Source: Pseudomonadales bacterium
GTDB taxonomy: Bacteria; Pseudomonadota; Gammaproteobacteria; Pseudomonadales; Porticoccaceae
Length of the DNA stretch: 64,000 nt
Direction: 5' to 3'
NCBI GenBank assembly: GCA_024234435.1
Contig: JACKOF010000002.1
Location: 61,695 to 125,694, forward strand
This document shows positions 4,563-61,950 of the stretch, piece after piece (the stretch's first letter is position 1; each line of letters opens with the position of its first letter). The position numbers and the translations under genes were made by a program. Under the pieces are notes generated by a model. It made no database searches, had not been told where the DNA came from, and saw only the letters and a program-made list of their open reading frames with translations.

Positions 4563-5723
4563 TCATTCATTGTTTGTGTTGAGGAAACTCTCGGTTATTG
4601 CTACCCACTTATTCACAATATCCCGGCCAACGATTCTATCCAGGTAATCAACATCAATAATTTCCGATTCGAGGTCAATCTCCTGATGCTCAGAGAAAAG
4701 TGTATACATGGCCCAGGCAGCATGTGTTACAGCCAGCGGTGACAGGACATCAACACTGCTTAAAGCCGGTTGCTTATGCCACGTCACTGCTTCAACAATA
4801 GGAAAAGGCATGGCCCAGATCCCCATCAGATACCCACCCAGAAGATCGGTATCGAGTGGATCCTCGTTTGCCTGGACCAGCTTATCACCCAGAAAAACGC
4901 CAAGCAAACCACCCAGATTGACCATCATACCCGCTATTTGAATATGGTCTCTGGTGCGTCCGGTCAACTCACAGGCCTTGGCAAACCTGCTTGCCAATAA
5001 CCCGATTTGCTGACCATCATGATTCAGCTTGCGAAGGAAATCATGATCGGCAATAGGCCCCTTGAATGACAGAAAAATGCTGTTGGACAGCGCCAGGTTT
5101 TTGATGGTATCGACCCCCAAAATCGCCGCCGCCTGTCCGGGAGTTTCAATGTGTCTGACCAGAGAAAAGAAAGCCGAGTTCACGAGTTTCAGCAAAGAAG
5201 AGGATAGCGCCATATCTCGCTCAACAATGTTACCCACTTTCTCCAAAGAGGATTTATCGGATGCGATCTCGCGCATTAACTCGTCATATATTTCCGGAAG
5301 CATCGGCAGGGATTCAAGCGAACCCAGCAAAGATTTTAATATTGGGTTAGCTAGCGATTCTTGCAGGCGAAGCCCTCTTTCAATGGTGCTCACCACAATT
5401 TCCTGATCAGCCGGTTTTGAAATAAACTGGTGAGCGGCATGCAGGCTTTCAAGGATCAACTCGTCATTCGCATACCCGGAAAGCACAATCCTCAGGCAAT
5501 CAGGTGAACGCTCTTTCACTTGCATCAACAGCTCGGCGCCGTTCATACCCGGCATCCGCATATCACTGACAACAATATCGAACTTCTTGTCGTCAAACGC
5601 TTTCAACAGCTCATCGCCTGAAGGGAAGAAGCTCAAATCCCACTCTTTTCGGTAATTGCGCAACATTCTGCGCAACCCGTCAAGGACTCTCTGGTCATCA
5701 TCAACAAACGCTATGGTTTTCAT
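4563..5723 (-). CDS. Response regulator: REC plus HDOD domain
   Basis: REC motifs (FVDDDQ, IVVSDMRMPGMNG, ISKP). HDOD-like block follows (LPMLPEIYDELMREIASDKSSLEKVGNIVERDMALSSSLLKLVNSAFF). Confidence 0.85.
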   Translation of the reverse strand: MKTIAFVDDDQRVLDGLRRMLRNYRKEWDLSFFPSGDELLKAFDDKKFDIVVSDMRMPGMNGAELLMQVKERSPDCLRIVLSGYANDELILESLHAAHQFISKPADQEIVVSTIERGLRLQESLANPILKSLLGSLESLPMLPEIYDELMREIASDKSSLEKVGNIVERDMALSSSLLKLVNSAFFSLVRHIETPGQAAAILGVDTIKNLALSNSIFLSFKGPIADHDFLRKLNHDGQQIGLLASRFAKACELTGRTRDHIQIAGMMVNLGGLLGVFLGDKLVQANEDPLDTDLLGGYLMGIWAMPFPIVEAVTWHKQPALSSVDVLSPLAVTHAAWAMYTLFSEHQEIDLESEIIDVDYLDRIVGRDIVNKWVAITESFLNTNNE

Positions 5724-16823: not shown

Positions 16824-18560
16824 ATGACAGCCCATTCTCAACCACAACGCATTCGACTCGGTGACCTGCTGATTTCCCAACAGGTCATCACCCCGGAGCA
16901 ATTACAAGAGGCGCTCCAGGCACAAAAAGATTCCGGACAGAAGCTGGGGCAAGCTCTCATTTCACTGGGCTTTGTTGACGAAAGAACCGTTCTGGAAATT
17001 CTTTCACGCCAGCTCAACATTCCCTTCGTTGACCTTCACCATTACAACATTGAACCTGAGCAGGTACGCAGTATTCCCGAAACTGTTGCCCGCCGCTTCA
17101 GGGTCATTGTGCTAGGTGAAGAAAACGGCAAGGTTGTACTCGGCATGTGTGACCCGGCTGATATTTTTGCTATTGACGATGTATCCAGGCGCCTCGGCAA
17201 GGAAATATCACCCGTTGCCGTGGTAGAAGCCGAACTGCTGGACAGTCTTGATATGTCATATGGCCGCTCGGAGCAAATCCAGAGTCTGGCAGCCGAGCTG
17301 GATGAAGTCCTGAGCGAAGCAACCGTCGATATTTCCAACCTGATCAACGACGTCCCTGACAGCGATGCTCCGGTCGCTCGGCTGCTGGAAAGTATTTTCG
17401 AAGAAGCGATCAAGACCAACGCTTCCGACATTCATATCGAACCTGAAGAAAAGATTCTGCGAATCCGGCAACGGATCGACGGAATGCTCAGCGAACGCAT
17501 TATGAATGAACGCCGCATTGCAGGAGCGCTGGTGGTGCGTCTGAAGCTGTTGGCCGGTCTGGATATTTCGGAAAAACGCCTACCTCAGGATGGTCGCTTT
17601 CATATCAAAGTGAAAGGCCGTGATATTGATCTGCGGATGTCCACTATGCCCGTTCAGTACGGTGAATCAGTGGTGTTGCGGATACTCAACCACGCCGATG
17701 CCGTGCTTTCACTGAACAATAGTGGCATGCCAGAGCGGATGGTCGGCCGTTTTCGCGATTTCCTGCACCGCCCCAACGGGCTGGTACTGGTCACCGGTCC
17801 CACTGGCAGCGGTAAAACCACCACGCTTTACAGCGGCCTGACCGAACTCAATACCGCCGACAAAAAAATCATCACCGTAGAAGACCCGGTAGAGTACCGT
17901 CTACCACGTGTCAATCAGGTACAGATTAATGAAAAAATCGGCCTGACCTTTGCCAAGGTGCTGCGCGCCACCTTGCGGCAGGACCCGGACGTACTGCTGG
18001 TGGGTGAAATCCGCGACCGGGAATCGGCAGAAATTGCCATGCGTGCAGCCATGACCGGTCACCTGGTATTATCAACTCTGCACACCAATGACGCCTGCTC
18101 ATCACCGCTCAGGCTGGTAGACATGGGCGTCGATCCCTACCTCGTCGCTTCGTCACTGAAAGCGGTTGTCGCGCAGCGCCTGTTACGCCGACTGTGTGAT
18201 AAATGTGCAAAATCCCATCAGCCGGATGCAGGAGAAAAACAATTAATAGAAATGATTTCAAAACTCCGCGAAATCAAAGCGACCGATTACCGCACGGCCG
18301 TGGGCTGTCCGCACTGTTTTAATACCGGCTACAGGGGACGTGTTGGCGCCTTCGAATGGCTCGAAGTTAACGACGAGATGGCCGATCACTTGCGTGAAAA
18401 CAACAGCCGAGGTTTCCTCAAAGCAGTCCATCAAAGCAGAACTTTCCGCCCGTTGAGTGTTAGCGCCATGGAGTATGCCGAGAAAGGTATTACCAGCCTG
18501 TCCGAGGTGATGCGCGTATCCGCACAGCTGGAAGATGAACAACTGACGGATGTCGACTAA
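16824..18560 (+). CDS. mshE: MSHA extension ATPase MshE (GspE/PilB family) with an N-terminal MshEN c-di-GMP-binding domain
   Basis: Tandem RLGxxLL/KLGxxL motifs at the N-terminus. Walker A GPTGSGKTT. Asp/His boxes. Tetracysteine CDKC...CPHC. Confidence 0.95.
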   Translation: MTAHSQPQRIRLGDLLISQQVITPEQLQEALQAQKDSGQKLGQALISLGFVDERTVLEILSRQLNIPFVDLHHYNIEPEQVRSIPETVARRFRVIVLGEENGKVVLGMCDPADIFAIDDVSRRLGKEISPVAVVEAELLDSLDMSYGRSEQIQSLAAELDEVLSEATVDISNLINDVPDSDAPVARLLESIFEEAIKTNASDIHIEPEEKILRIRQRIDGMLSERIMNERRIAGALVVRLKLLAGLDISEKRLPQDGRFHIKVKGRDIDLRMSTMPVQYGESVVLRILNHADAVLSLNNSGMPERMVGRFRDFLHRPNGLVLVTGPTGSGKTTTLYSGLTELNTADKKIITVEDPVEYRLPRVNQVQINEKIGLTFAKVLRATLRQDPDVLLVGEIRDRESAEIAMRAAMTGHLVLSTLHTNDACSSPLRLVDMGVDPYLVASSLKAVVAQRLLRRLCDKCAKSHQPDAGEKQLIEMISKLREIKATDYRTAVGCPHCFNTGYRGRVGAFEWLEVNDEMADHLRENNSRGFLKAVHQSRTFRPLSVSAMEYAEKGITSLSEVMRVSAQLEDEQLTDVD

Positions 18561-19777
18561 TGCCAACGTTTAAATACAAGGGTCGTAACGTTGAAGGCAT
18601 AGAGCTGAAAGGCGTTATTGAAGGCAGCTCCACAGATCACGTGCTCTCACAACTCGCCAACCGTGGCATCACGCCTATCACGCTCACTGAAGCGCGGAAA
18701 AGCACCGAGCTGGACGTCATGGTCTACCTGCGCAGACGCCAAAAGGTATCAATGGACGAGTTGATCATGTTCGCTCGCCAGATGTACACCATTACCCGCT
18801 CGGGTATTCCTCTTATCCGCAGTGTGCGGGGCATTTCCGGAACCGTTTACAACCCGCGTCTGAAAGATGCACTGGACGATACCGCCGACAGACTCGAAAC
18901 AGGCATGTCACTGTCTGCTGCCATGCAACCGCACATAGACGTTTTTGGCCCCATGTTTATCAGTATTATCCAGGTAGGTGAAGACAGTGGTCGCCTTGAT
19001 GAAGCTTTCAAACAGCTCGCCGAATATCTGGAACGTGATCTGGGCACCACACGCCAGATTAAAACCGCACTTCGCTACCCCAGTTTTGTGTTGATCGCTT
19101 TTATCATTGCCATCACTGTAGTGAATATCTGGGTTATCCCTGCATTTGCAGGCATGTTTGACCGGCTCGGTGCCGAATTGCCACTACCTACCCGGATGCT
19201 GCTGGGGCTGTCTTCATTCTTTGTTAACACCTGGCCCCTTTTGTTGCTGCTGGTGAGCGGCAGTATTTACTGGTTCAAACGCTTTGTCAGAACCGAAGAA
19301 GGGGCAAAAAAATGGGGCAAGCTTAAAGTCACCATGCCTATCATTGGCGACATTATCAATCGCGCCACCCTGTCCCGCTATGCACGTGCCGTTTCATTGA
19401 TGCTGGCGGCAGGCGTGCCGGTGAACCGGGCAATGGAACTCAGCGCCCGGGCGGTCAACAACGACTATATGGCAGAAAAAATCCGCGGCATCCGTCACGG
19501 TATTGAGCGCGGCGAGAATATGCTTGCCACCCATACGGCGACCAATATGTTCACACCACTGGTGCTGCAAATGATCGCAGTGGGCGAAGAAAGCGGCAAG
19601 GTAGACGAACTGTTGAGCGAGGTGGGAGAGTTCTATGAACGCGAAGTGGATTACGACCTCAGTACGCTTACCGCCAAAATTGAACCTATCATGATTGTGA
19701 TGATGGCCGCTTTTGCCCTGATCCTTGCACTGGGCATATTTCTGCCCATGTGGAGCCTGTACAGTGTGCAGGCCTGA
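18560..19777 (+). CDS. mshG: MSHA platform protein MshG (GspF/PilC family)
   Basis: TAATG overlap with mshE. Duplicated GspF-type domains with three TM regions. Confidence 0.9.
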   Translation: MPTFKYKGRNVEGIELKGVIEGSSTDHVLSQLANRGITPITLTEARKSTELDVMVYLRRRQKVSMDELIMFARQMYTITRSGIPLIRSVRGISGTVYNPRLKDALDDTADRLETGMSLSAAMQPHIDVFGPMFISIIQVGEDSGRLDEAFKQLAEYLERDLGTTRQIKTALRYPSFVLIAFIIAITVVNIWVIPAFAGMFDRLGAELPLPTRMLLGLSSFFVNTWPLLLLLVSGSIYWFKRFVRTEEGAKKWGKLKVTMPIIGDIINRATLSRYARAVSLMLAAGVPVNRAMELSARAVNNDYMAEKIRGIRHGIERGENMLATHTATNMFTPLVLQMIAVGEESGKVDELLSEVGEFYEREVDYDLSTLTAKIEPIMIVMMAAFALILALGIFLPMWSLYSVQA

Positions 19778-20318
19778 CACTTTTAATACCACTCGCAAAA
19801 GCCTGCCTCAACGGGGCTTTTCAATACTTGAACTGCTGGTTGTTGTCGTGGTAATCGGCATTCTGATCACCACCGCATACCGCTACCTGCAGGATCATAT
19901 TACCGAAGCTGAAAAAGCGACACTGACGAGCCTGTCGAGAGATTTCGCCGTCAGCATGTCCATGATACGCAACAAATGGATTGTAGAAGGAAAGCGCACA
20001 ACCCCCAAAGGCCAAAGAGTCACCCAACTGGAGGACAGCACTGTCTACCTGAATCAGAGCGGTTGGCCAATTGCAACACGGGCGCTGGACAAAGGTGAAA
20101 TTCCCACCGCCGAAGACTGCGCGCAACTCTGGAATATTATTATGCAGTACAGCGTAGCGACCACTGTTGAAGGGGCCAGTGTACGCGGCGACGCCAGTTA
20201 CCATATCTCGTCGCCAGGCAGAAACCATTGCCGGTACGAACTCGCCTATCTGCCGAAAAACCACTACTACTTTGACTACCTGTCAGAGAAAGGGGAAGTA
20301 AAACTGAACCGGAATTAA
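19764..20318 (+). CDS. mshF: MshF, prepilin-like MSHA protein
   Basis: Prepilin motif QRG/FSILELLVVVVVIGIL. The track start at 19725 is TTG inside mshG; an in-frame GTG at 19764 is the more plausible start. The 5' end is uncertain. Confidence 0.6.
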   Translation: MCRPDTFNTTRKSLPQRGFSILELLVVVVVIGILITTAYRYLQDHITEAEKATLTSLSRDFAVSMSMIRNKWIVEGKRTTPKGQRVTQLEDSTVYLNQSGWPIATRALDKGEIPTAEDCAQLWNIIMQYSVATTVEGASVRGDASYHISSPGRNHCRYELAYLPKNHYYFDYLSEKGEVKLNRN

Positions 20319-20379
20319 CCGGCTATCGACGAAAACGCCCATTTGTCAACAAGTTACAACAGAATACTCATGTAAAGCA

Positions 20380-20408
20380 TTGACTTTTCAGCCAATAGCT
20401 TCAACAAT
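20380..20408 (+). promoter_or_regulatory. Candidate sigma-70 promoter for the pilin gene block
   Basis: TTGACT (20380-20385), 17-nt spacer, AACAAT (20403-20408). It lies in the only sizeable intergenic gap inside the msh locus, about 115 nt upstream of the mshA ATG. Confidence 0.3.
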
Positions 20409-20523
20409 AACGACAATTTCGTCAATTCCACAACGTGTTAGATATTATCGATTTTGTCAGTTACGGGATTATCAGCGAATAAGCGTTAAAACCAACCACA
20501 AAGCAAATAAAGGGAAGAAAAAC

Positions 20524-20922
20524 ATGAAACAACAACGTGGTTTTACTCTGATTGAACTCATCGCCGTTATCGTTATTCTGGGCATCCTGGCCGCCGTTGC
20601 CGTACCCAAATTTGTTGATCTGTCACAAGCAGCAAAAGAAGCAGCCGTGAAAGGTGCTGCTGGTGCGTTATCCAGTGCTTCTGCACTGAACCATGCCAAT
20701 AACATTGCCAATGATGCAGGCCTAACCACCACTACAACTATTGTAGCGGTTGCCAATTGCACGGATGTTGCCAACATACTTGATGGCGGCCTGGACAGCC
20801 AGTTTGAGATTGTTGCCGCTGCCGTCGGCACAAATGAAGGCGATAGCGAAACTTGCGTTGTCCGTGACAGTGTGACGACTTCGATCACTGAAAACTTCAC
20901 AGCTTACCGTGTAGCTCCCTAA
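20524..20922 (+). CDS. mshA: Major MSHA pilin (type IVa prepilin)
   Basis: ATG at 20524 with AAGGGAAG upstream. Leader MKQQRG followed by FTLIELIAVIVILGILAAVAVPKF (Gly-1, Phe+1, Glu+5). The track start 20380 is a spurious extension. Confidence 0.85.
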   Translation: MKQQRGFTLIELIAVIVILGILAAVAVPKFVDLSQAAKEAAVKGAAGALSSASALNHANNIANDAGLTTTTTIVAVANCTDVANILDGGLDSQFEIVAAAVGTNEGDSETCVVRDSVTTSITENFTAYRVAP

Positions 20923-20940
20923 TGTAGCTCCTCTGAAACA

Positions 20941-21366
20941 GTGGTTTTGCTGAAGGTTGCCCGACAATCCGGTTTTACCCTGATTGAACTGATTGCGGTG
21001 ATACTGATTCTCTCAGTACTCACCGCCGGGGTCGCCAGCCAGTTCAGCAACACCTCACAGTTTCAGGCCATGACGACCCGCGACGATATAGTTGCGGGTT
21101 TGTTTTATGCCCAGCAAATAGCCCTGGCCAGAGCAGCAACAGACAACACGGTTGCGTTCGTATCGAGTGGAAACAGTATTGATGTCCTTGAAGACGGCAC
21201 CACAGTTAACGGCATATACCCCCTCACCCTTCCCGGTGGTTTTACCCTGACCAGCGCCACTCTCAACTATGACAAGCTCGGCAGGACAACCGCCACAGCA
21301 CTGACATTGAGCGACGGTTCCAGTAGTGTCGTCATTCAGGTATCGGCCTCCGGCTATGCAAACTGA
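20941..21366 (+). CDS. mshC: Minor MSHA pilin (MshC-position prepilin)
   Basis: GTG start. The QSG/FTLIELIAVILILSVL prepilin motif. Confidence 0.7.
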   Translation: MVLLKVARQSGFTLIELIAVILILSVLTAGVASQFSNTSQFQAMTTRDDIVAGLFYAQQIALARAATDNTVAFVSSGNSIDVLEDGTTVNGIYPLTLPGGFTLTSATLNYDKLGRTTATALTLSDGSSSVVIQVSASGYAN

Positions 21367-22000
21367 AAAACCTTTTTGGATCACTCCAGATCCGTTCGTG
21401 ATGGCAGCCTCGCCAAACCGCCATTGCGAGCCGCAGGTGCGGCAATCCAAAAAAATATTGCTGGATCACCTCACCCGCGTTCGCAATAACAGCGCCACCT
21501 CCCGCTCATTGCGAGCCACAGGTGTAGCAATCCATAGAGCACGTCAACAAGGTTTCTCCCTGATTGAACTGGTGGTCTTTATGGTGGTGGTCGGGCTGGC
21601 TTTAAGCTCCACTATACTGGTTTACAACCAATCGGTGATTAACAGCGTTGACCCCATTATTCGCGTGCAAATGGCCGAACTGGCTCAATCACAACTGGAT
21701 GAAGTTATCGCCAGAAAATATGATGAGAATACTCCCACCGGCGGCATTCCAGCCTGCGGCAGTGCCGAAACCGGCGCACCGGCTTGTGCGGGCATGGGGC
21801 TGGAAGCGGGTGAAGTTCTTAGCGACCAGTCCACTCTGGACGATGTGGACGATTTCGATGGTTACAATGATACACCCTATACTGGCTATACCCGTGATGT
21901 CGCCATTAGCATTGTCGGCAACACCAAACAAATTACCGTAACGGTATCCGGCCCGAACAACCAGCAGCTTATACTCAGTGCTTTCCGAGCCAACTTCTAG
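21356..22000 (+). CDS. mshD: Minor MSHA pilin MshD with an unusually long N-terminal extension encoded by two repeat elements
   Basis: Prepilin motif QQG/FSLIELVVFMVVVGL. The only ATG is at 21356 and overlaps the upstream stop (ATGCAAACTGA). An alternative internal TTG lies at 21509. Confidence 0.65.
   Translation: MQTEKPFWITPDPFVMAASPNRHCEPQVRQSKKILLDHLTRVRNNSATSRSLRATGVAIHRARQQGFSLIELVVFMVVVGLALSSTILVYNQSVINSVDPIIRVQMAELAQSQLDEVIARKYDENTPTGGIPACGSAETGAPACAGMGLEAGEVLSDQSTLDDVDDFDGYNDTPYTGYTRDVAISIVGNTKQITVTVSGPNNQQLILSAFRANF
21378..21448. repeat. 71-bp imperfect-palindromic repeat element, copy A
   Basis: Sequence runs GGATCAC...CATTGCGAGCCGCAGGTGCGGCAATCC. It aligns without gaps to copies B and C. 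Confidence 0.8.
21463..21533. repeat. 71-bp imperfect-palindromic repeat element, copy B
   Basis: Sequence runs GGATCAC...TCATTGCGAGCCACAGGTGTAGCAATCC. It lies 14 nt after copy A. Confidence 0.8.
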
Positions 22001-22010
22001 GCTAATCACT

Positions 22011-22793
22011 GTGATATCAACCACCCGAAAGTCATTTTCAGCTCGCAGTCAGTCCGGTTTTACACTGATTGAATTGATTACAGTGATCGTGATTCTCTCG
22101 ATCATCGCCACTTTCGGCAGCGGTTTCGTGGTATCGACTCTGGATGCCTATAGCCAGACCCAGGACCGCAGCAAACTGATTAACCGGGGACGTCAGGCAA
22201 TAGAGCAGATCACCCGCCGAATCCGGGGCGCTACCCCTAACAGTATCCGTATTACCGGCAACTGCCTGGAGTTTCTGCCGCTGGCCAGTGGCGGCAATTA
22301 TTTAAATGCCGTGCCCGATCTGAATAACGGCGCCCCCGCCTCCAACACGATAAGCATCACACCCTATAGCGTCGATTTTGGTACTGCACGGCATGTCACT
22401 ATCGGCGCAGACAGCGCTGGTGACATTTACAGTGGCGGGTCGCTGGCAACACTGGATTCATTCACGGCCACCACACTGACGCTCACGGGCAACAAGGTCT
22501 GGCAAAGAAATTCACCCACACGGCGTTTCTACCTGACCGATAACCCGGAATCGTTCTGCATGACAGGAGCAAACCTGCTGCACCACAGTGGTTACGCCAC
22601 CCCCCTGACCAGCACCGGAACACCCGGCGGGGCAGGCACACTGATGGCTGAAAATGTATCCTCCGGCACCCCTTTTGCGATAGAGGCAGGCACTGAAACC
22701 CGCGGTGCAGTGGTGATGATTGATTTGGTATTTGCCGAGAAAGACCAGCAGGTACCTATTCGTCAGGAGGTATTTGTTCGCAATGTTCCCTGA
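22011..22793 (+). CDS. mshO: MshO, prepilin-like minor pilin
   Basis: Prepilin motif QSG/FTLIELITVIVILSIIATFG. Start is either GTG 21978 (track) or GTG 22011; the 5' end is uncertain. Confidence 0.7.
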   Translation: MISTTRKSFSARSQSGFTLIELITVIVILSIIATFGSGFVVSTLDAYSQTQDRSKLINRGRQAIEQITRRIRGATPNSIRITGNCLEFLPLASGGNYLNAVPDLNNGAPASNTISITPYSVDFGTARHVTIGADSAGDIYSGGSLATLDSFTATTLTLTGNKVWQRNSPTRRFYLTDNPESFCMTGANLLHHSGYATPLTSTGTPGGAGTLMAENVSSGTPFAIEAGTETRGAVVMIDLVFAEKDQQVPIRQEVFVRNVP

Positions 22794-23349
22794 CACGTTC
22801 TGTAATAGCTTAAACCGCCTTCTGGATCGCTTCACCGCTGTTCGCGATGACAACCTGCCCTCACTGTCATTGCGAGCCGAAGGCGTGGCAATCCAAAACC
22901 ACTCAAGCCAAAGGCGCTCTCTGCATCTACCCCAAAAGCAACAAGGCTTTCTGATGCCGCTGGCCATTTTTATTGTCGTGATCATGGGCTTCTTTATTAC
23001 CACTCTCTCCCGCACCACCAGCCAGACGGCAACCTCCACCACGCAGGAGGCGATTTCACTGCAGGCTTTTTACGCAGCAGAAAGTGGTGCGCAACTGGGC
23101 ATGGCCAACCTGTTTTACGACACACTGAATCCATTAACGGCTTCAGCGGTTACAGGCCGTTGCGATGCGATGGCATTAACACCCAGCTTTAGCATCACAG
23201 GGCTGCGAAACTGTTCAGCCAGCGTCAGCTGTGCAACCGACAGTTCCGTTCCCGGTAAAAGCTTCTATACCATTACCAGCGTTGGCCGGTGTGGAGGCAC
23301 TGACATTGGTTCAAACCGAACTGTTCAGGTTTCGGCAAAAATGGAATAA
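22783..23349 (+). CDS. mshP: MshP (PilX-like minor pilin-associated protein), N-terminal region encoded by a repeat element
   Basis: ATG at 22783 overlaps the mshO stop by 11 nt. Hydrophobic segment QQGFLMPLAIFIVVIMGFFITT. Position in the operon. Confidence 0.6.
   Translation: MFPDTFCNSLNRLLDRFTAVRDDNLPSLSLRAEGVAIQNHSSQRRSLHLPQKQQGFLMPLAIFIVVIMGFFITTLSRTTSQTATSTTQEAISLQAFYAAESGAQLGMANLFYDTLNPLTASAVTGRCDAMALTPSFSITGLRNCSASVSCATDSSVPGKSFYTITSVGRCGGTDIGSNRTVQVSAKME
22824..22894. repeat. 71-bp imperfect-palindromic repeat element, copy C
   Basis: Sequence runs GGATCGCTTCACCGCTGTTCGCGATGAC...GTCATTGCGAGCCGAAGGCGTGGCAATCC. Confidence 0.8.
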
Positions 23350-23355
23350 CAGCGA

Positions 23356-26300
23356 ATGTGTTTACGGCGTTATATCACTGCTCTGCTTCTGCTGGCTGCC
23401 ACCGGGCTGCAAGCGGCACCTGGTGATATTCTGTTTCAGGAACAATTTAACAACACCGCTGACCTGACGGCTGACTGGACCACTGACAGTGAAGCCCGCG
23501 TCAACGCAGTGACCGGCAACCCAACACCTTCGCTTTCCATAGAGGCTGGCAATGGGGCTCGTTCTGCAACGTCCCGGCCAATTGATACGCAGGTTCCCAG
23601 TGCTTCACTGAGCTTCTGGGTAAGGCGTGGTTTCGACACTCAGGGGGGCAACTGTCCATCCAATCAGACATGTTCTGAATACCCGGAAGGTGGTGAGAAT
23701 TTCCAGGTCCAATACCTCAACAGCAGTAACAACTGGATCACCCTGATCACCTATACCGGTGGCGGCACCTCTGGAGAAATATTCACCTATGATGAACCTC
23801 TGCCCGCGGATGGCTTGCACGCAGCCTTCCGCCTGCGTTTTACTCATGTGGGTGGAAACCAGGGCGGCTGGGATTTATGGCATGCCGACGATGTGCTGAT
23901 CACGGAAACCATTGATATCGCCGCCACCTGTTCTACCACCAGTACGATTTTCTACGAGGCGTTTAACAACAATGGCGACCTCAATAGTGACTGGAACACC
24001 GATAACGGTGTTCGTATTAACAGCATCACGTTCGGCGCAGCGTCACCCTCTGTCTCTATTGATGGTCGCTCCGGACTGCATGGCATTACCAGCAAATCAA
24101 ATCGCATCGATGCCAACGTCGCAGCCGCCCGCCTGGGGTTCTGGGTCCGCCGCGGCTTTGATACCCAGAACAATGGCTGCCCAACCAACCAGAATTGCTC
24201 TGAGGATACCGACGACAACGAAAATCTGGTGGTGGAATATCTCAACAATGCCAACAGCTGGCAACCGATCATTACCTACGAAGGCGGCGGAACAAAGGGT
24301 GAGATTCTGAATTACAGTGCTCTGCTACCCGGCGATGCACTGTACAGCGGCCTCCGGCTTCGTTTTTTGCATACCGGTGGCAGTGGTTCAACCTGGGATC
24401 TCTGGCATATTGACGATGTCTTGGTAGAGCAGTGTACGGGCTCCGCAGGGCCGGACCACTACAGCATTAATAACCTTGCCACTACTGCTGTCAGCTGCGA
24501 AGCCATAAACCTGACCATCGAAGCCCATGATGCCAGCCACAACCTGACCGATGCCCTTTCAGCCACGGTTACACTCACCACATCCACTGGTCGCGGCACA
24601 TGGTCCGGCACAGGCATCAGCGATGCCACACCCAATGACGGAACGGCTACGCTCACCTTCTCCAGCGGTGCTGACTCAATGAACGTACAATTGAGCCACC
24701 CGGATCTGGGCGGCAACACCAGCGAGACAATCAATATCAATGTCAGCGACGGCTCTATCACTGAAATCAGCGGCAATGCCATCGCCCTGGATGACCCCAG
24801 CACGGTAATTTCAGACTCCGGCTTCCGTTTTATTGAAGTCGCAGGAGCCACGACCACTGCAACCATCCCCAGCCAGGTAGCCGGTGTACTGTCTTCCCAG
24901 AATCTGTTTATCGAAGCCATACGTACTGACTTGGACACGGGCTCCTGCACTGGCGTGTACCCGGCTGGCACGACAGTGAATGTGGATCTGGCCGCCGAGT
25001 GCAAAAACCCACAAAACTGCGCAGGTCTGCAAGTCGCGATCACCAACAATGGCAATACCACCAGCATTGCCACCAGCAACGACAACAGCGGTACAGGGGC
25101 CGCCGCCTACACCGGCGTTAATCTGCTGTTTGCCAGTGATTCCCGCGCGGCCTTCAGCCTGCGCTACCGTGATGTCGGCAATATCAGTCTGCACGCCCGG
25201 GATACCGTCAACCTGCCCGGTAACGTATCGGACACACTGACAGGCGAAAGCAACGGTTTTGTCGTCAAACCCTATACGCTGATGATGATTCTGGCCGAAA
25301 GTAACGACGCCACGCCGATTAACAACCCGGGGACAACCACTGCATTACCGGGATTTCTGCCCGCCGCCGCATCATTTCGAGTGGTAGTCGAATCTCAGGA
25401 TGCTGATGGCAACCGAACACCTAACTACGGCAACGAAACCATACCGGAAACCGTTAGTGCATCATTCGGTTCGCTGATTTTTCCAGTGGGCCCAGGAGCG
25501 GCAAACGGTACTTTTTCATCCGGCACGTTCACGGCCACTGCCACCCCAGGTCAGTTTGAATCAACAACCGCAAGCTGGACAGAAGCGGGCACCTTTACGC
25601 TGATAGCCGATATCGGCGACAGTAATTACCTGGGCGCTGGCGGCGTGGCATCACCCGCAGAATCCGGTAATATTGGCCGTTTTTACCCGGCGGACTTTGC
25701 CCTCAGTGGAGAAGCGCTTGATCAATGGTGTGAGGCATCGGGCACGAAAACCGGCTCGTTCTCTTATCTCTCCCAGCCGAATCTGCGACTCACCTATACG
25801 CTTACCGCCCGCAACCGCTCGGGCAATCCCGTGCTCAACTATGACAATACTGACTTAAACTACCTGATCACCAGCCCTGACGTACCTATTGGTGCCATCA
25901 ACTATCATGCCGAAAATGCCGATAACGGTATTAACCTGAATGCACGCGTAACGGTTTCACCCTCGGCACCCATTGCATGGGATAACGGCGTTTACCGGTT
26001 GACCGATGTTCCCGGTCAGCTTAACCGTATCGCTGCACCTGATGGCCCGTTCACCGAAACGCAATTTAGTCTGGATGTGACAGACCCCGACGGGGCTGTA
26101 CTGGATATCGCCAACCGCAACCAAAATCCTGACACTTCGGGGGACTGTTTGACACCCGCCAATTGCACCAGTGCTGCACTGGGCAACCCTCAGGTTTTCC
26201 GGTTTGGTCGCACCGTTATTGAAGACGCCAGTGGTCCTGAGTCCGCTCCCCTGCCCGTGATTTTTGGCACCGAATACTGGGATGGCACCAACTTCATCAC

Positions 26301-26655
26301 GACCACCAACGACTCCTGCAGTACACTGGCGTTTAGCGAAATTACCTATGCTACGAATAACCCGATTGCCAACCCACAGCCTGTAGCGGTGGGCAGCGGC
26401 ACCAGTAATGGCTCACTGAACGCAGCTGGTTCAGCTGCGGCAGTCACCTCCGGCACCTTCGGGCTGATTTTTTCTGCTCCCAATGACACAGGTCAATTCC
26501 CTGTTTCGGTCAACCTCACCAATTACCCCTGGCTGCGCTTTGACTGGAACCAGGACGGCGATTACAACAATGATACTGCCCTGCCTGACGCCACCATCAA
26601 CTTTGGTGCCTACCGTGGTCACGACCGGGTAATCTACTGGCGTGAGCGATTCTGA
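23356..26655 (+). CDS. mshQ: MshQ, large secreted MSHA-associated protein with duplicated N-terminal lectin-like domains
   Basis: Signal peptide (LLLLAATGLQAAPG). 1099 aa, last gene of the msh order. Two roughly 160-aa internal repeats. Confidence 0.8.
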   Translation: MCLRRYITALLLLAATGLQAAPGDILFQEQFNNTADLTADWTTDSEARVNAVTGNPTPSLSIEAGNGARSATSRPIDTQVPSASLSFWVRRGFDTQGGNCPSNQTCSEYPEGGENFQVQYLNSSNNWITLITYTGGGTSGEIFTYDEPLPADGLHAAFRLRFTHVGGNQGGWDLWHADDVLITETIDIAATCSTTSTIFYEAFNNNGDLNSDWNTDNGVRINSITFGAASPSVSIDGRSGLHGITSKSNRIDANVAAARLGFWVRRGFDTQNNGCPTNQNCSEDTDDNENLVVEYLNNANSWQPIITYEGGGTKGEILNYSALLPGDALYSGLRLRFLHTGGSGSTWDLWHIDDVLVEQCTGSAGPDHYSINNLATTAVSCEAINLTIEAHDASHNLTDALSATVTLTTSTGRGTWSGTGISDATPNDGTATLTFSSGADSMNVQLSHPDLGGNTSETININVSDGSITEISGNAIALDDPSTVISDSGFRFIEVAGATTTATIPSQVAGVLSSQNLFIEAIRTDLDTGSCTGVYPAGTTVNVDLAAECKNPQNCAGLQVAITNNGNTTSIATSNDNSGTGAAAYTGVNLLFASDSRAAFSLRYRDVGNISLHARDTVNLPGNVSDTLTGESNGFVVKPYTLMMILAESNDATPINNPGTTTALPGFLPAAASFRVVVESQDADGNRTPNYGNETIPETVSASFGSLIFPVGPGAANGTFSSGTFTATATPGQFESTTASWTEAGTFTLIADIGDSNYLGAGGVASPAESGNIGRFYPADFALSGEALDQWCEASGTKTGSFSYLSQPNLRLTYTLTARNRSGNPVLNYDNTDLNYLITSPDVPIGAINYHAENADNGINLNARVTVSPSAPIAWDNGVYRLTDVPGQLNRIAAPDGPFTETQFSLDVTDPDGAVLDIANRNQNPDTSGDCLTPANCTSAALGNPQVFRFGRTVIEDASGPESAPLPVIFGTEYWDGTNFITTTNDSCSTLAFSEITYATNNPIANPQPVAVGSGTSNGSLNAAGSAAAVTSGTFGLIFSAPNDTGQFPVSVNLTNYPWLRFDWNQDGDYNNDTALPDATINFGAYRGHDRVIYWRERF

Positions 26656-58778: not shown

Positions 58779-60632
58779 ATGACAAATCTGACTAACACCA
58801 GACTATTAAAGTCGCACTACTTTGCGGGCTGGTCCGCTAGCGACCCTATCAGACACACGCCTGAAAACGTTATTCTGGCAATGCAGAACACTGAAAACAG
58901 CTCACTGCCAACAGAAACTATCGCCGCCAACACTTACGGGTGTATCACTACCGGGCATTTATTCAGCCCGGACAACACCGTGACTGCGGCGATTACCGGT
59001 AATCCTCGCTGGCCATCGCATTCACTGCAACAGTTAGCGTCGGATAAAAATAACGCTCACGCACTTGCTGCCGCTTACCGGCAGCATGGTCCTGAATTGT
59101 TCGAGCAACTGCAAGGTGATTTTTCATTAATTATTATTGATAGCAGTAATGATTTGTTTCTATCGGCAACGGACCGTATGGGGCAACACCCCGTTTATTA
59201 CGCCACTCTCAATAACGGTGTGGTGTTCGGCTCATCAGTGTCTGCCGTTCTGGCTCATCCGGATGTCAAACGGGAAATCCAGCCCCAAGGTATCTACGAT
59301 TACGTTTACTTTCATATGGTACCCAGCCCCCACTCCATTTTTGCGGGCGTAAACAAACTCCCCGCTGGCCATTTGCTCCAGTATCAAAATGGGCGGGCGG
59401 AAGTTAAAAACTATTGGCAACCCGATTTTAAAGAGAGCTGCTCTACCAGCTTCCCGGATATGGCTAAACAGCTAAAGACCGAGTTAAAAAATGCCGTCGC
59501 CCGCAATATAAGAAGCGGCGCATCTGTTGGCGCGTTTCTCAGCGGAGGACTCGACAGTTCAAGCGTCACGGGCATGCTTGCTGAAGCCTGCGAGCGAGAA
59601 GCACACGCCTATTCCATTGGTTTTTCAGCCAAGGGCTATGACGAAATGGAATACGCGCGCATTACAGCCAAACATTTTGGCGTAAAACTTCACGAATATT
59701 ATGTGACACCGAAGGATGTAGTAGATGCACTACCGCTGGTCGCATCCAGTTACGACGAACCCTTTGGCAACTCATCTGCCCTGCCCGCTTATTTCTGTGC
59801 CAAAGTCGCTGCCGAAAACGGTGTACAACAATTGCTGGCAGGTGATGGTGGTGACGAAATTTTTGCAGGTAACGAGCGTTACATTAAACAGGGCATTTTC
59901 GAAAATTATGGGAAAATCCCTCTTGCTTTGAGGCGTGGGCTTATAGAGCCTGTCACCCGAAAACTGCCACAGGGGTTCCCGCTGGCCAGCAAAGCCAACA
60001 GTTATCTTGACCAGGCAAACACGCCCCTGCCCGACCGCTTGCAAAGCTACAATTTTTTGCACCGGCATCAACCGAATGAAATATTTACTGACGACTTCCT
60101 GAGACAGGTAGATGTGTCGGCTCCGATAGCCCTGCAAAGGCATACTTACCAGCTGCCGGAAAAAGCCGAAACTCTTAACCGGATGCTCTACCTGGACTGG
60201 CAATACACCCTGGCCGACAACGACCTGCGCAAAGTCAGCCATATGTGTGCCCTGGCCGGTATCGATGTCAGTTACCCCATGCTTGATGACAATCTGATCG
60301 CTTTTTCCTGCTCAATTCCCAGCGCCTGGAAAATCAAGGGTAAGGACTTGCGCCATTTCTACAAACAGGCGCTAACCGGCTGGCTACCCAACGAAACCAT
60401 TCACAAGAAGAAGCAGGGTTTCGGGCTGCCTTTCGGAGTCTGGATGGAAACACATAAACCGCTGCAGGAAATGGCTTACGACAGCCTGTTGCGACTAAAA
60501 CGCAGGGGTTATTTGAGGCCGGAGTTCATTGACCACGCCATTGAGCTGCACCGCAATCATCACGCAGCATACTACGGCGAGTTAGTCTGGATTTTGACCG
60601 TGCTGGAACTCTGGATGGACAAACATGTTTAA
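58779..60632 (+). CDS. Asparagine synthetase B-family amidotransferase lacking the canonical N-terminal Met-Cys
   Basis: PP-loop AFLSGGLDSS. AsnB C-terminal blocks (LAGDGGDEIFAGNERY, KKKQGFGLPF). The glutaminase-domain region is present, but the N-terminus is MTNLTNTR... Confidence 0.85.
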   Translation: MTNLTNTRLLKSHYFAGWSASDPIRHTPENVILAMQNTENSSLPTETIAANTYGCITTGHLFSPDNTVTAAITGNPRWPSHSLQQLASDKNNAHALAAAYRQHGPELFEQLQGDFSLIIIDSSNDLFLSATDRMGQHPVYYATLNNGVVFGSSVSAVLAHPDVKREIQPQGIYDYVYFHMVPSPHSIFAGVNKLPAGHLLQYQNGRAEVKNYWQPDFKESCSTSFPDMAKQLKTELKNAVARNIRSGASVGAFLSGGLDSSSVTGMLAEACEREAHAYSIGFSAKGYDEMEYARITAKHFGVKLHEYYVTPKDVVDALPLVASSYDEPFGNSSALPAYFCAKVAAENGVQQLLAGDGGDEIFAGNERYIKQGIFENYGKIPLALRRGLIEPVTRKLPQGFPLASKANSYLDQANTPLPDRLQSYNFLHRHQPNEIFTDDFLRQVDVSAPIALQRHTYQLPEKAETLNRMLYLDWQYTLADNDLRKVSHMCALAGIDVSYPMLDDNLIAFSCSIPSAWKIKGKDLRHFYKQALTGWLPNETIHKKKQGFGLPFGVWMETHKPLQEMAYDSLLRLKRRGYLRPEFIDHAIELHRNHHAAYYGELVWILTVLELWMDKHV

Positions 60633-60699
60633 GGGTCACTAACGTTTTATTACACGGAGAAAACAGCACTGGCGTACACGGTATCGTTCGCAACATATT

Positions 60700-60770
60700 G
60701 GATTACTTCCTCGCTTCTTCTCACAATGCCGGAACGCTGGCTGTCATTGCGCGCAGTAGCACAGCAATCC
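60700..60770. repeat. 71-bp imperfect-palindromic repeat element, diverged copy D
   Basis: Sequence runs GGATTACTTC...GTCATTGCGCGCAGTAGCACAGCAATCC. Same length and termini as copies A-C. Located in a convergent intergenic region. Confidence 0.65.
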
Positions 60771-60825
60771 AATAAAATTGAATCCTGCTTAAACCAGCCC
60801 TTATGCAGCCATAATACCTTTACCC

Positions 60826-61950
60826 TCATAAAACTTTTTCACCAAATACCATATCTGTTCCACAATTTTCTGAAAAAATGGAATCCAGCATCAAATCACC
60901 GAGCTCTTTTCTGTAGTGCGCAGGCTCCCAGAACCACTTTAATGCAACGCCTTTCTCGCCCTGCGCTGGTAGAGGTTCATGAATATAAGGCGAATCAGCA
61001 GAAAAATTCCACAGCGTAACCCGGCTGCTTTGTATACCCTCAACAATGCCAGTGATTTCCCCCAACCAGTCGGGGTAGAGATCCAACAACCTGTTTTTCT
61101 CAAGAAGATTCCAGAACCTTTCGTGCAGCGGATTAATAAAAAGTACAACTTCGATATCCCGACTGCTCAAAACGGATAAGAATGCCTTCAAGTGCTCAAA
61201 ATCCTCTGACCTCTGGCCATTTTCATAATAAAGGCTCCAGCGCCTTTGATATTTCTCCTGCAACAACTGCTCTTTCTGAAGAAACAGTGCTCGCACACCT
61301 TCAATTCTGGTGCTGCTGGCAAAGTCGTAAGCCGGGTTAAAACCGGCTTCGGTTCTGTCCGTTGCCGGACTTCCCTGCGCGACCACCGTTTTTATTGAAC
61401 TGACCAGAGCGTTCAAGGAAAAGAAGGCGGAATAATAGTCTTTCAGCTGACTCAGACGATACGCACTGTTGATATCGCCGTTAGCCTGATACTGGAGGTT
61501 TGCCACTGGCGATATCCCGCTATTCAACGGAGCGCTGGAACCTTCGGCAACCAGAAAATCCGGAAAGTCCAGACTCATTAAGACCCTGTTAACCGGCTTT
61601 TGATACACCAGATTCAGTGCCGCTGCGGACTGGTACCCAATGCTCGCGCCCGGTATTCCGAGATTATAGGCTTTCCGCCCCCCCGCAGAGAGACAGGCAT
61701 GGTGGGGGTCAACTCCCATCTCGACACGTGAATTGCCAACAATCAGTGTCTGAAAGTCAGCCCTTAACGGCTGATAGGCTTTTGCCAATCTGACCCGGCT
61801 ATTGATGTGAACTTTATAATGATTAAACCCCTCGATGCGTTTTGCACCGGAAACAGCATAAGGGTCAACAAAATAATTGAACACAAAAACCAGACAGCTC
61901 GCAAAAACCAGTGTGAGCAGAAAAGTAACTGTGTATTTTTTTGTTGTCAT
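60826..61950 (-). CDS. Membrane-anchored accessory protein of the MBOAT acyltransferase (DltD/AlgJ-like role inferred)
   Basis: N-terminal TM anchor. IVGNSRVEMG block resembles the SGNH/DltD block I. Lies 9 nt downstream of the MBOAT gene on the same strand. Confidence 0.45.
   Translation of the reverse strand: MTTKKYTVTFLLTLVFASCLVFVFNYFVDPYAVSGAKRIEGFNHYKVHINSRVRLAKAYQPLRADFQTLIVGNSRVEMGVDPHHACLSAGGRKAYNLGIPGASIGYQSAAALNLVYQKPVNRVLMSLDFPDFLVAEGSSAPLNSGISPVANLQYQANGDINSAYRLSQLKDYYSAFFSLNALVSSIKTVVAQGSPATDRTEAGFNPAYDFASSTRIEGVRALFLQKEQLLQEKYQRRWSLYYENGQRSEDFEHLKAFLSVLSSRDIEVVLFINPLHERFWNLLEKNRLLDLYPDWLGEITGIVEGIQSSRVTLWNFSADSPYIHEPLPAQGEKGVALKWFWEPAHYRKELGDLMLDSIFSENCGTDMVFGEKVL

Follow-up and report, generated by a model that had tools for sequence, protein, structure and literature searches.

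Short palindromic repeats lie in frame in the 5' ends of mshD and mshP in the Porticoccaceae (Pseudomonadales) genome analysed here, which raises the question of whether these repeats are translated as part of very long prepilin leaders or whether translation starts inside or after them. Both readings had been put forward, with no choice made between them, in a preliminary description of the locus. After comparison with relatives, we consider it probable that the repeats are translated and then removed with the leader by the prepilin peptidase, because the ancestral start codons are coupled to the preceding genes, mshP has a Shine-Dalgarno sequence and the frames are open in all element-bearing leaders examined.

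MSHA operon and its palindromic elements

The window, meaning the whole stretch of DNA that was analysed (64,000 nt, 64 kb), carries the gene order mshB-A-C-D-O-P-Q after mshE/mshG in ORFs 16824-26655, which identifies an MSHA-type pilus operon. MshQ, a large DUF6701 protein (DUF6701 E = 3.5e-103), is encoded last in the operon, and the syntenic locus L001 carries MshEN and T2SSE/F. The names mshD and mshP used in the preliminary description agreed with the JGI names of homologues. The genes concerned are the following.

20941..21366, + strand: mshC, minor pilin; ORF with the N_methyl motif PF07963; same gene call in L212-L218
21356..22000, + strand: mshD, 214 aa, read from the ancestral stop-overlapping ATG; homologues named MshD (JGI)
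22011..22793, + strand: mshO, minor pilin without element; its TGA (22791-22793) overlaps the mshP start
22783..23349, + strand: mshP, 188 aa, read from the ancestral stop-overlapping ATG; 188-aa calls in L212 and L214-L217; homologues named MshP (JGI)

The TGA of mshC at 21364-21366 overlaps the mshD start (ATGCAAACTGA), and ATG 22783 of mshP overlaps the mshO stop (ATGTTCCCTGA). The mshC/mshD and mshO/mshP overlaps were 11 nt in all lineages examined. Across public records, the same mshD gene is called as 139, 199 or 214 aa. In one NCBI annotation MshD begins at ATG 21401 (P0001, 199 aa), and other NCBI annotations call the 214-aa protein from ATG 21356.

Four copies of one element family were found within the 64-kb window, three of them intragenic and one intergenic.

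21376-21452, + strand: element copy A, imperfect palindrome of ~77 nt; contains the in-frame ATG 21401
21461-21537, + strand: element copy B, imperfect palindrome of ~77 nt; contains TTG 21509
22822-22898, + strand: element copy C, imperfect palindrome of ~77 nt; translation LLDRFTAVRDDNLPSLSLRAEGVAIQ
60690-60777, no strand assigned: fourth copy (D), diverged; nhmmer E ~5e-4 on both strands

The fourth copy is truly intergenic and lies between the convergent ORFs 58779..60632 (+) and 60826..61950 (-). That the repeat copies are real, as first described, was borne out by the core CATTGCGAGCCnnAGGnGnnGCAATCCA, which had three matching sites within the 64 kb compared with none in shuffles, and by the folding of copies A, B and C, each of which forms a hairpin of -27.7 to -32.7 kcal/mol (z -3.4 to -3.9). 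The consensus stem was retained across 12 copies, with compensatory changes in just 4 of 20 pairs owing to the high similarity of the copies. The element frame of copy A is 'CAT TGC GAG' (…RHCEPQVRQSK), which differs from that of copies B and C. Copy B is read as 'tCA TTG CGA' (…SLRATGVAIH), the only stop-free one among its three forward frames, and shares this frame with copy C (SLRATGVAI and SLRAEGVAI, respectively). Copy C is orthologous to the second mshP-leader copy of locus L210.

The element core was present in at least 120 stretches spanning many bacterial phyla. Counting these copies as intergenic or intragenic by stop-free stretches was uninformative, since most of the genomes are of high GC content and contain long spurious open frames. 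No relevant Rfam 15 match was obtained across 19000-25000 (E <= 1) or in six loci carrying canonical element copies (E <= 0.1). A full-text literature search with the DNA core and the encoded peptides returned irrelevant papers only and gave no name for the element. No GIY-YIG gene was detected by tblastn within the 64-kb window. A small GIY-YIG nuclease gene adjoins the element family in 3 of the 120 loci listed, and all three GIY-YIG genes in the loci compared lay 38-113 nt from an element; a literature search for GIY-YIG with palindromic repeats gave only fungal mitochondrial or otherwise unrelated papers. Neither terminal inverted repeats with a target-site duplication nor a RAYT transposase was identified for the elements; the transposase search consisted of the GIY-YIG tblastn, and a duplication would not be recognisable because the flanks could not be aligned with empty sites.

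Start codons and reading frames in relatives

In the element-free loci L001 and L124, mshD and mshP begin at the same ATGnnnnnnTGA/TAA overlap, with leaders of 14-21 residues. Written with a slash before the first mature residue, the leaders were MPTKPAINNHHQSG/FSLIEL (mshD) and MFPDRKYSPKMRHNQQG/FLMPLAIF (mshP) in L001, and MPTDHSHTVNSQQG/F and MFPNFVPSHSSVSSLPQKQKG/F in L124. The ATG position is also kept in most of 80 metagenome MshD loci, which begin with M[PRHQ][TI][KND].. and have leaders of 7-18 aa. As the element-free relatives begin at the same stop-overlapping ATG, the elements are insertions inside leader-coding DNA; a comparison with repeat-free orthologues had been proposed in the preliminary description. 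In the window, the frame is open from ATG 21356 through both copies to RARQQG/FSLIELV and from ATG 22783 through copy C, and the predicted leaders are the following.

21356..21553, + strand: predicted MshD leader, 66 aa, net charge +7; ends RARQQG, with Gly-1 at 21551-21553 and F+1 at 21554
22783-22947, + strand: predicted MshP leader, 55 aa; G/F at 22945-22950 (QKQQG/FLMPLAIF)

The MshD leader exceeds the 14-aa leaders of element-free orthologues by 52 codons or 156 nt, which is the length given previously for copies A and B plus their spacer. The coupling of ATG 21356 to the upstream stop, the open mshD frame with its 66-aa leader, the reading of mshP through copy C and the in-frame position of TTG 21509, which would yield a 15-aa MshD leader, were likewise confirmed. 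ATG 21356 had wrongly been called the only ATG, since ATG 21401 is also in frame, within copy A. Further in-frame mshD starts are GTG 21326, 21398 and 21437 and TTG 21458.

Ten element-bearing leaders were compared; they belong to mshD, mshO or mshP, come from five lineages and represent three unrelated hairpin families. They were mshD and mshP of the window, mshD (2.5 copies) and mshP (2 copies) of L210, mshD of L208 (a +42-nt variant), L123 and L143, and mshD, mshO and mshP of L220. The elements of L220 form a second hairpin family and that of L143 is a third hairpin; the mshD/mshO junction of L220 is TGATG. All ten leaders were stop-free from the coupled ATG, and the gene frame was the sole stop-free frame in half of them (5/10). 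The elements start 10-42 nt past the ATG, that is 2-34 nt past the upstream stop, and leave the ribosome-binding site free. The preliminary estimate of about 0.1 for each frame being open by chance holds for random sequence ((61/64)^52 = 0.08); in the real elements, the A+B block is open in the gene frame only and copy C in two of its three frames. The wider claim that the open frames are unlikely to be due to chance was strengthened, with a probability of ~5e-6 for frame retention together with an open frame in seven independent events, assuming event independence and random phase.

Orthologues were searched for copies that break the frame at the same site, and no frame-disrupted element-bearing leader was found in this DNA-level check, outside which P0125, P0126, P0212, P0218 and P0023 lay. 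Database proteins of 171, 139 and 131 aa were considered as frame-disrupted and rejected, since they derive from other gene calls on open DNA, from truncated contigs or from a probably chimeric contig (L207). The junction DNA was identical across eight assemblies of the window's species except for two 1-nt homopolymer deletions, at 22934 in L213 and at 22731 in L219, which would break or fuse frames and which we read as probable assembly errors. The insertion at the mshP site is common to the window and L210 and is therefore old. The relatives indicate that in-frame insertion was recurrent and selected rather than a product of chance.

The mshP start codon is preceded by a Shine-Dalgarno sequence.

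22765..22770, + strand: Shine-Dalgarno AGGAGG, 12 nt upstream of the mshP ATG

Its predicted duplex with the 16S rRNA tail (-11.7 kcal/mol) is the strongest in the operon, and AGGAGG is kept in L001 and L210, with AAGAGG in L124. Internal start candidates of mshP had predicted duplexes of +0.8 to -6.1 compared with -11.7 at the coupled ATG. For mshD, the predicted duplex at ATG 21356 was -3.9, similar to those of mshE and mshG, and the values were +1.2 for TTG 21509 and +0.4 for ATG 21401.

These results bear on the alternative that translation of mshD, and perhaps of mshP, begins within or beyond the elements, with ATG 21401, TTG 21458 or TTG 21509 of mshD or GTG 22885 of mshP as examples. 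In that case the elements would be structured RNA between the cistrons, outside the translated sequence, and it would be incidental that the frame upstream is open. We regard this as unlikely. In-frame internal start codons do exist, but no candidate in mshD or mshP has a Shine-Dalgarno sequence, whereas the upstream mshP ATG has the strong and conserved AGGAGG. ATG 21401 was chosen by PGAP in two MAGs and the 171-aa calls of L210 use an internal ATG within the last copy; however, no internal start is common to different lineages, and past the hairpin, L123 and L220 offer no canonical start codon in frame. The internal sites were predicted to be at least as accessible as ATG 21356 (mean unpaired probability 0.36-0.49 vs 0.32), and the idea that internal starts are sequestered by RNA structure was dropped as accessibility did not separate ATG 21356 from them. 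An internal start would also leave unexplained why all ten element-bearing leaders are stop-free and in frame. Of the two readings first offered, the one with an internal start such as TTG 21509 is thus disfavoured.

If translation proceeds from the ancestral starts, REP/MITE-like palindromes would have inserted a few nucleotides past the mshC and mshO stop codons, in the zone just downstream of stop codons where such elements usually land and which they presumably preferred here. As the ATG of the next gene overlaps the preceding stop, this landing zone falls in the 5' part of mshD and mshP that encodes the leader. Translation would still begin at the coupled ATGs 21356 and 22783 and pass through the elements, giving prepilins with positively charged cytoplasmic leaders of 66 and 55 residues, and the prepilin peptidase would cut these behind the conserved Gly. 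A leader that is discarded would be almost unconstrained in sequence, and insertions and subsequent changes in copy number would survive only where they preserve the frame and bring in no stop codon. Demonstrated at the sequence level, and the basis of this scheme, are the anatomy of the locus, the homologous start sites, the Shine-Dalgarno sequence and the conservation of frame across lineages.

Predicted extended leaders and the conserved mshP block

In both proteins, Gly(-1) is followed by a hydrophobic alpha1N of ~20 residues (MshD, RARQQG/FSLIELVVFMVVVGLALSSTIL; MshP, QKQQG/FLMPLAIFIVVIMGFFITTL). MshD has E5 and matched PF07963 with 26.6 bits (cut-off 21.2) and TIGR02532 with 16.3 bits, exactly the cut-off. 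MshP matched neither PF07963 nor TIGR02532 and has no Glu5 (FLMPL), as is also the case in its orthologues; PF14341 is carried by two MshP homologues. As a protein domain, the MshD leader had no Pfam match and one marginal match among 1.8 billion representatives. All extended leaders carry a net charge of +2 to +8.

The leader of type IV prepilins remains cytoplasmic, with Gly-1 as the sole residue strictly needed (PMC4471445, PMC10191384); its reviewed length is 6-26 aa, up to ~30 in type IVb (PMC4471445). The leaders described here resemble class III prepilin signal peptides in having a hydrophilic, positively charged cytoplasmic segment that ends in Gly and is followed by a hydrophobic alpha1N, with Glu5 in MshD. 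They also resemble those of type IVb and S. sanguinis pilins, in which leader length is variable and the sequence is of little matter except for Gly-1. In contrast to the described leaders of 6-26 or 30 residues, those read from the coupled ATGs have 66 (MshD) and 55 (MshP) residues, with up to 93 in L208, and they are largely repeat-encoded and polymorphic within populations. This anomaly in leader length leaves the prepilin membership of the mature proteins unaffected. We know of no tolerance test for leaders of 55-93 aa.

One part of the mshP leader was conserved beyond the rest of the operon.

22855..22947, + strand: conserved block, 93 nt; covers the copy C loop and right arm together with the native 3' part of the mshP leader

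This block is 93-97% identical to L210 compared with 55-80% elsewhere in the operon, and its pS is 0.12 compared with 0.61-0.71 elsewhere (binomial P < 1e-6), in lineages otherwise saturated at synonymous sites. The GVAIQN[HR]SSQRRSLHLPQKQQG peptide was invariant in six L210-lineage variants, as were the last 22 leader residues in six population variants, while the element parts vary. This conservation would fit a second alternative, in which the translated elements, or the leader DNA surrounding copy C, were co-opted as a cis-acting nucleic-acid signal that sets minor-pilin stoichiometry. The signal could consist of hairpins that slow coupled ribosomes, are bound by a regulator or shield upstream mRNA against exonucleases; REP hairpins stabilise upstream mRNA, and three unrelated hairpin families occur at the same junctions in different lineages. 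We nevertheless consider this quite unlikely. The mshD elements showed no extra conservation (58-72%), and many relatives have no element at all. The left arm of copy C had diverged while the right arm had not, indicating that it is not the hairpin as such that has been kept. The extended region folded no better than shuffles (z = -1.3), and no promoter-like or terminator-like sites were detected in a scan of the leaders. A short recent recombination tract would equally explain the block; no second copy of the mshP flank that could act as gene-conversion donor was found, the flank being unique in the window and in the loci compared. In its most specific form, 22855-22947 would be dual-use DNA, encoding leader residues and at the same time a nucleic-acid signal (a regulatory RNA, a protein-binding or a processing site) for mshP-mshQ expression. 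It would then be an exapted palindrome in a class III signal peptide, with coupled minor-pilin junctions as a selected hairpin 'docking site' that tunes stoichiometry. This proposal is likewise quite unlikely.

That the insertions crippled mshD and mshP and that the genes are decaying with transiently open frames is hardly credible: leaders far longer than those described and the two assemblies with 1-nt deletions that shift the frame in the mshP leader or close to it would suit it, but the mature parts of both proteins are under purifying selection between the window and L210 (dN/dS 0.06-0.13 at saturated dS), the old insertion at the mshP site is still open, and the identical 214-aa MshD (P0121; 38 blocks listed) occurs on 24 or more contigs, which come from several samples. 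By the dN/dS of their mature parts, mshD and mshP are functional genes.

Relation to known systems and significance

With the repeats taken as translated in the leaders, the elements are classified by analogy as RPE/MITE-like in-frame insertions. Rickettsia palindromic elements (RPEs) are short palindromic repeats in frame within protein-coding genes (Ogata et al. 2000, summarised in PMC10969869). The likeness lies in short palindromic selfish repeats that are in frame, translated and tolerated in permissive protein parts, and insertion into functional ORFs with the frame preserved was found here as well. RPEs differ in being ~100-150 bp long and Rickettsia-specific, and no sequence relation is expected. 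As the present host clade is a different one (Porticoccaceae/Pseudomonadales MAG), the claim is one of working like RPEs and not of membership. RPE segments stay in the mature protein, whereas the present inserts lie in a segment that would be cleaved off, and insertion here has recurred at the same gene junctions, which three unrelated element families share.

The elements also resemble REP/BIME and intragenic MITEs (ERIC, BOX, Correia; PMC10969869) as imperfect palindromes of tens of nucleotides that are dispersed and often in tandem. The typical REP/BIME site is just 3' of stop codons within operons (PMC10969869), and a comparable extragenic placement was seen for copy D and for GTAG-type hairpins of L220 in true intergenic gaps. 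Copies A-C differ in being intragenic, and the core is common to many phyla whereas REPs are species-specific. The mshC/mshD and mshO/mshP overlaps and the TGATG of L220 mshD/mshO correspond to translational coupling (ATGnnnnnnTGA, TGATG), with the difference that here coupling turns a preference for insertion in the 3' flank into insertion in the 5' coding part of the next gene. In-frame repeats in pilin leaders are an unusual yet precedented fate of selfish repeats.

Coupled-start logic would correct the divergent mshD gene calls, including those of several relatives truncated to 131-171 aa. Conservation at the nucleotide level in part of the mshP leader suggests that a regulatory element may lie there. 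If the repeats are translated as proposed, class III signal peptides tolerate leaders at least three times longer than described, which would bear on substrate recognition by the prepilin peptidase and by SRP/Sec and on the leader-length cut-offs of pilin finders. The locus would then be a natural example of how a stop/start overlap and a discarded leader jointly decide where selfish palindromes persist inside genes.

Leaders and start codons of mshD and mshP

The MSHA-type type IV pilus operon spans 16.8-26.7 kb of the window. JGI names the homologues of the two focal proteins MshD and MshP, and an identical MshD protein was present in MAGs that NCBI labels as Porticoccaceae or Pseudomonadales bacterium (it was seen on at least 24 contigs, from several samples). 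GC skew was below zero in all 2-kb bins of window 1-64000 (cumulative skew -3.06), placing the entire window on one replichore strand.

MSHA operon genes and full repeat copies (window positions)
16824-18560, mshE
18560-19777, mshG
between mshG and mshA, mshB
20524-20922, mshA
20941-21366, mshC
21356-22000, mshD
21376-21452, copy A, full copy, imperfect palindrome
21461-21537, copy B, full copy, imperfect palindrome
22011-22793, mshO
22783-23349, mshP
22822-22898, copy C, full copy, imperfect palindrome
23356-26655, mshQ (DUF6701)

Re-reading of the sequence returned the same coordinates and frames for both leaders as the preliminary description (a slash marks the predicted cleavage after Gly-1). 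In mshD, ATG 21356 overlaps the mshC stop (ATGCAAACTGA) and the frame is open to RARQQG/FSLIELV; in mshP the overlap is between ATG 22783 and the mshO stop (ATGTTCCCTGA), and the frame continues across copy C as far as QKQQG/FLMPLAIF, giving a leader of 55 residues. The repeat was genuine, with a 28-nt core at 3 window sites and at none in shuffled sequences. ATG 21356 had been called the only ATG, which does not hold as an in-frame ATG (21401) also lies inside copy A. The preliminary description was silent on the frame of the element, which is read differently in copy A than in B and C; the spacing from copy A to copy B is 85 nt.

Two element-free relatives, L001 and L124, are about as near to the window as the element-bearing L210 (identity to the window mature MshD of 84% for L001, and 79% over the matched part for L124). 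In both, mshD has the same stop/start overlap with short leaders, MPTKPAINNHHQSG and MPTDHSHTVNSQQG, as has mshP with MFPDRKYSPKMRHNQQG and MFPNFVPSHSSVSSLPQKQKG. At 80 further metagenome MshD loci (325 kb), from all of which the element was absent, the leader nearly always ran from M-x-T/I-K/N/D overlapping the mshC end and had 7-18 residues. By this homology, the stop-overlapping ATGs are the ancestral starts of mshD and mshP. The 66-residue window mshD leader exceeds the ancestral 14 by exactly 52 codons, indicating that the elements are insertions inside leader-coding DNA. Since they begin 20 nt (copy A) and 39 nt (copy C) past the ATG, the ribosome-binding region was left intact.

Public calls for the same or a near-identical mshD (window 21356-22000) are inconsistent, at 139, 199 or 214 aa; NCBI annotations start at ATG 21401 (199 aa) in one case and at ATG 21356 (214 aa) in others. 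The L001 gene (6001-6417) is called from an internal Met beyond the cleavage site (138 aa) and that of L124 (649-1179) from an upstream ATG within mshC (176 aa). The stop-overlapping ATG fits all these discordant calls. Metagenome MshD orthologues L152 and L154-L162 have no ATG in the leader frame (e.g. ATVATPINTSAISNRHSG/F); the conserved position is ACN (Thr), so a non-ATG start must be used.

ATG 22783 of mshP is preceded by AGGAGG at 22765-22770 (-11.7 kcal/mol), conserved in L001 and L210 and present as AAGAGG in L124. None of the internal in-frame mshP candidates had a comparable Shine-Dalgarno, and a start at ATG 22783 appears fairly clear. For mshD all scores were weak: ATG 21356 scored -3.9, similar to mshE and mshG, and no Shine-Dalgarno was found at TTG 21509 (+1.2) or ATG 21401 (+0.4). 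Predicted RNA accessibility did not discriminate among the candidate starts and was therefore left out of this argument.

Frame preservation across relatives

When the window was compared with relatives, as the preliminary description had proposed, all ten inserted leaders were open from the stop-overlapping ATG, and in 5 of the 10 the gene frame was the sole stop-free frame across the insert.

Hairpin insertions in msh operons of related loci
L210, L002 and L205: mshD leader 79 aa, 2.5 copies; mshP leader 83 aa, 2 copies
L208 and L209: mshD leader 93 aa, with a +42-nt variant
L123 (Porticoccaceae MAG): mshD leader 46 aa, 1 permuted copy
L220 (Porticoccus sp. GXU_MW_L64) 3514-3599, 4086-4171 and 4925-4956: GACGTTG-type palindromes
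L220 1130-1157 and 2980-3054: GTAG-type REP hairpins
L143 2046-2135: third, unrelated hairpin, mshD leader 40 aa

The mshP copies of L210, L002 and L205 occupy the same site as copy C and have the same loop sequence. In L220 the mshD and mshO leaders each contain, in frame, an 86-nt palindrome of GACGTTG-type heptamers, and the mshP leader has part of one; the REP hairpins occupy true intergenic gaps of the same operon (mshE-mshG and mshA-mshC). The L143 hairpin, from a distant relative (MshD 43% identical), is also in frame (about -52 kcal/mol over the leader). The chance of frame retention, for which every insert must be a multiple of three in length and fall in an open phase, was about 5e-6 for seven insertion events treated as independent. 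It is unlikely that translation starts internally and leaves the elements untranslated; such initiation has no Shine-Dalgarno support and leaves the universal frame preservation unexplained.

Shorter database proteins, which could have pointed to disrupted frames, were explained by differing gene calls on open DNA, by contig truncation or by a contig that is probably chimeric. In two assemblies of the same species as the window there are 1-base homopolymer deletions: in L213 (window 22934 equivalent) the mshP leader frame is broken and the caller starts MshP at MPLAIF (131 aa), and in L219 (window 22731 equivalent) mshO and mshP are fused into a 445-aa ORF. In L215 mshO is split. These breaks are probably assembly errors, the alternative being real frameshift variants. 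In L210 (1-1000) unrelated genes run directly into the 3' part of mshG (85-aa T2SSF fragment) and the msh secretion genes further upstream are absent, owing to a deletion or a misassembly.

Selection, leader properties and a conserved block in mshP

Mature proteins of the window and L210 gave dN/dS of 0.06-0.13 with dS saturated, pointing to purifying selection. Element-encoded leader parts showed amino-acid polymorphism within populations. Net charge was positive in every extended leader, which fits a cytoplasmic leader. In prepilin leader mutagenesis, Gly-1 alone was critical among the features tested (PMC4471445, PMC10191384).

Identity to L210 in 60-nt windows was 55-80% across the operon and 93-97% at 22855-22947 (L210 4198-4290), a 93-nt block made up of the copy C loop and right arm and, from the native mshP leader, the 3' half. 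The pS of this block was 0.12 versus 0.61-0.71 in mshC, mshD, mshO and mshP (P < 1e-6), and its last 22 codons were invariant in 6 population variants of the L210 lineage. Between window and L210, no such conservation was found in the copy C left arm or the mshD elements. The conserved mshP flank was unique, with no second copy in the window or the element-bearing loci compared, and showed no promoter-like or terminator-like motif and no exceptional fold. The block may be conserved for a function at the nucleotide level, or it may be a short tract that recombined recently. We consider exaptation of the elements as a regulatory signal, which is compatible with their translation, quite improbable. 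Pseudogenisation of mshD and mshP is very improbable, since the mature proteins are under purifying selection and the insertion is old.

The element family and its proposed route into leaders

Copies A, B and C each fold as a hairpin (z = -3.4 to -3.9), and a sensitive profile search found a diverged fourth copy at 60690-60777, in a genuine intergenic gap between convergent ORFs. When a single genome was scanned for each species, the element core occurred in at least 120 stretches, with hosts among the matches listed including Alphaproteobacteria, Chloroflexota, Bacteroidota, spirochaetes, Patescibacteria and others. The canonical copy is a long palindrome, GTCATTGCGAG...GCAATCCAG, a loop, then CTGGATTGC...CTCGCAATGAC, and is frequently repeated in tandem every 63-91 nt; the window copies are a circularly permuted version. 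The family had no Rfam match, literature searched by sequence contained no description of it, and the encoded peptide had essentially no protein homologues. Given its palindromic structure, dispersed and tandem copies and these negative searches, the element seems to behave as a REP/MITE-like selfish repeat.

Small (~100 aa) GIY-YIG nuclease ORFs (PF01541, E = 4.5e-14) were found at 3 of the 120 core-matching loci listed (~0.9 Mb), each within 38-113 nt of an element copy.

GIY-YIG loci
L057 7205-7920
L079 6879-7470
L088 5271-5690

The L057 gene lies between one lone copy and a tandem array of 63-nt period. The 64-kb window contained no small GIY-YIG nuclease gene. The adjoining gene is a possible lead to the mobilising enzyme. 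In a gammaproteobacterial MAG (L039, ~5138-5165), a solitary right arm (SLRAEGEAI) lies amid a 1417-codon open stretch and may be a genuine in-frame half-element in a large protein. At L207 (440-640) the 3' end of an unrelated gene (stop, 10 nt, element copy) is joined to the last mshD-leader array copies. This may be an assembly chimera formed at the repeat, or else evidence for another genomic copy directly after a stop codon.

From leader anatomy, start-site homology, Shine-Dalgarno sequences and frame conservation, we think the following route likely. Palindromic repeats would insert directly downstream of stop codons, which in translationally coupled pairs coincides with the leader-coding 5' end of the minor-pilin gene that follows. 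Ribosomes starting at the coupled ATG would read through the repeats and prepilin peptidase would cut off the resulting long leader; because the leader is discarded, selection would purge only frame-breaking insertions.

The nearest functional precedents are Rickettsia palindromic elements and other intragenic MITEs, which are likewise inserted in frame and translated (PMC10969869). Unlike these, the msh elements sit in a class III signal-peptide leader that would be discarded, and three unrelated hairpin families repeatedly strike the same operon junctions; both features appear new. Described class III leaders have 6-26/30 aa (PMC4471445), whereas the msh leaders of 55-93 aa are far longer, which also appears new. 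The recurrent hits at these junctions are plausibly caused by the stop/start overlap, and such a cause appears new as well.
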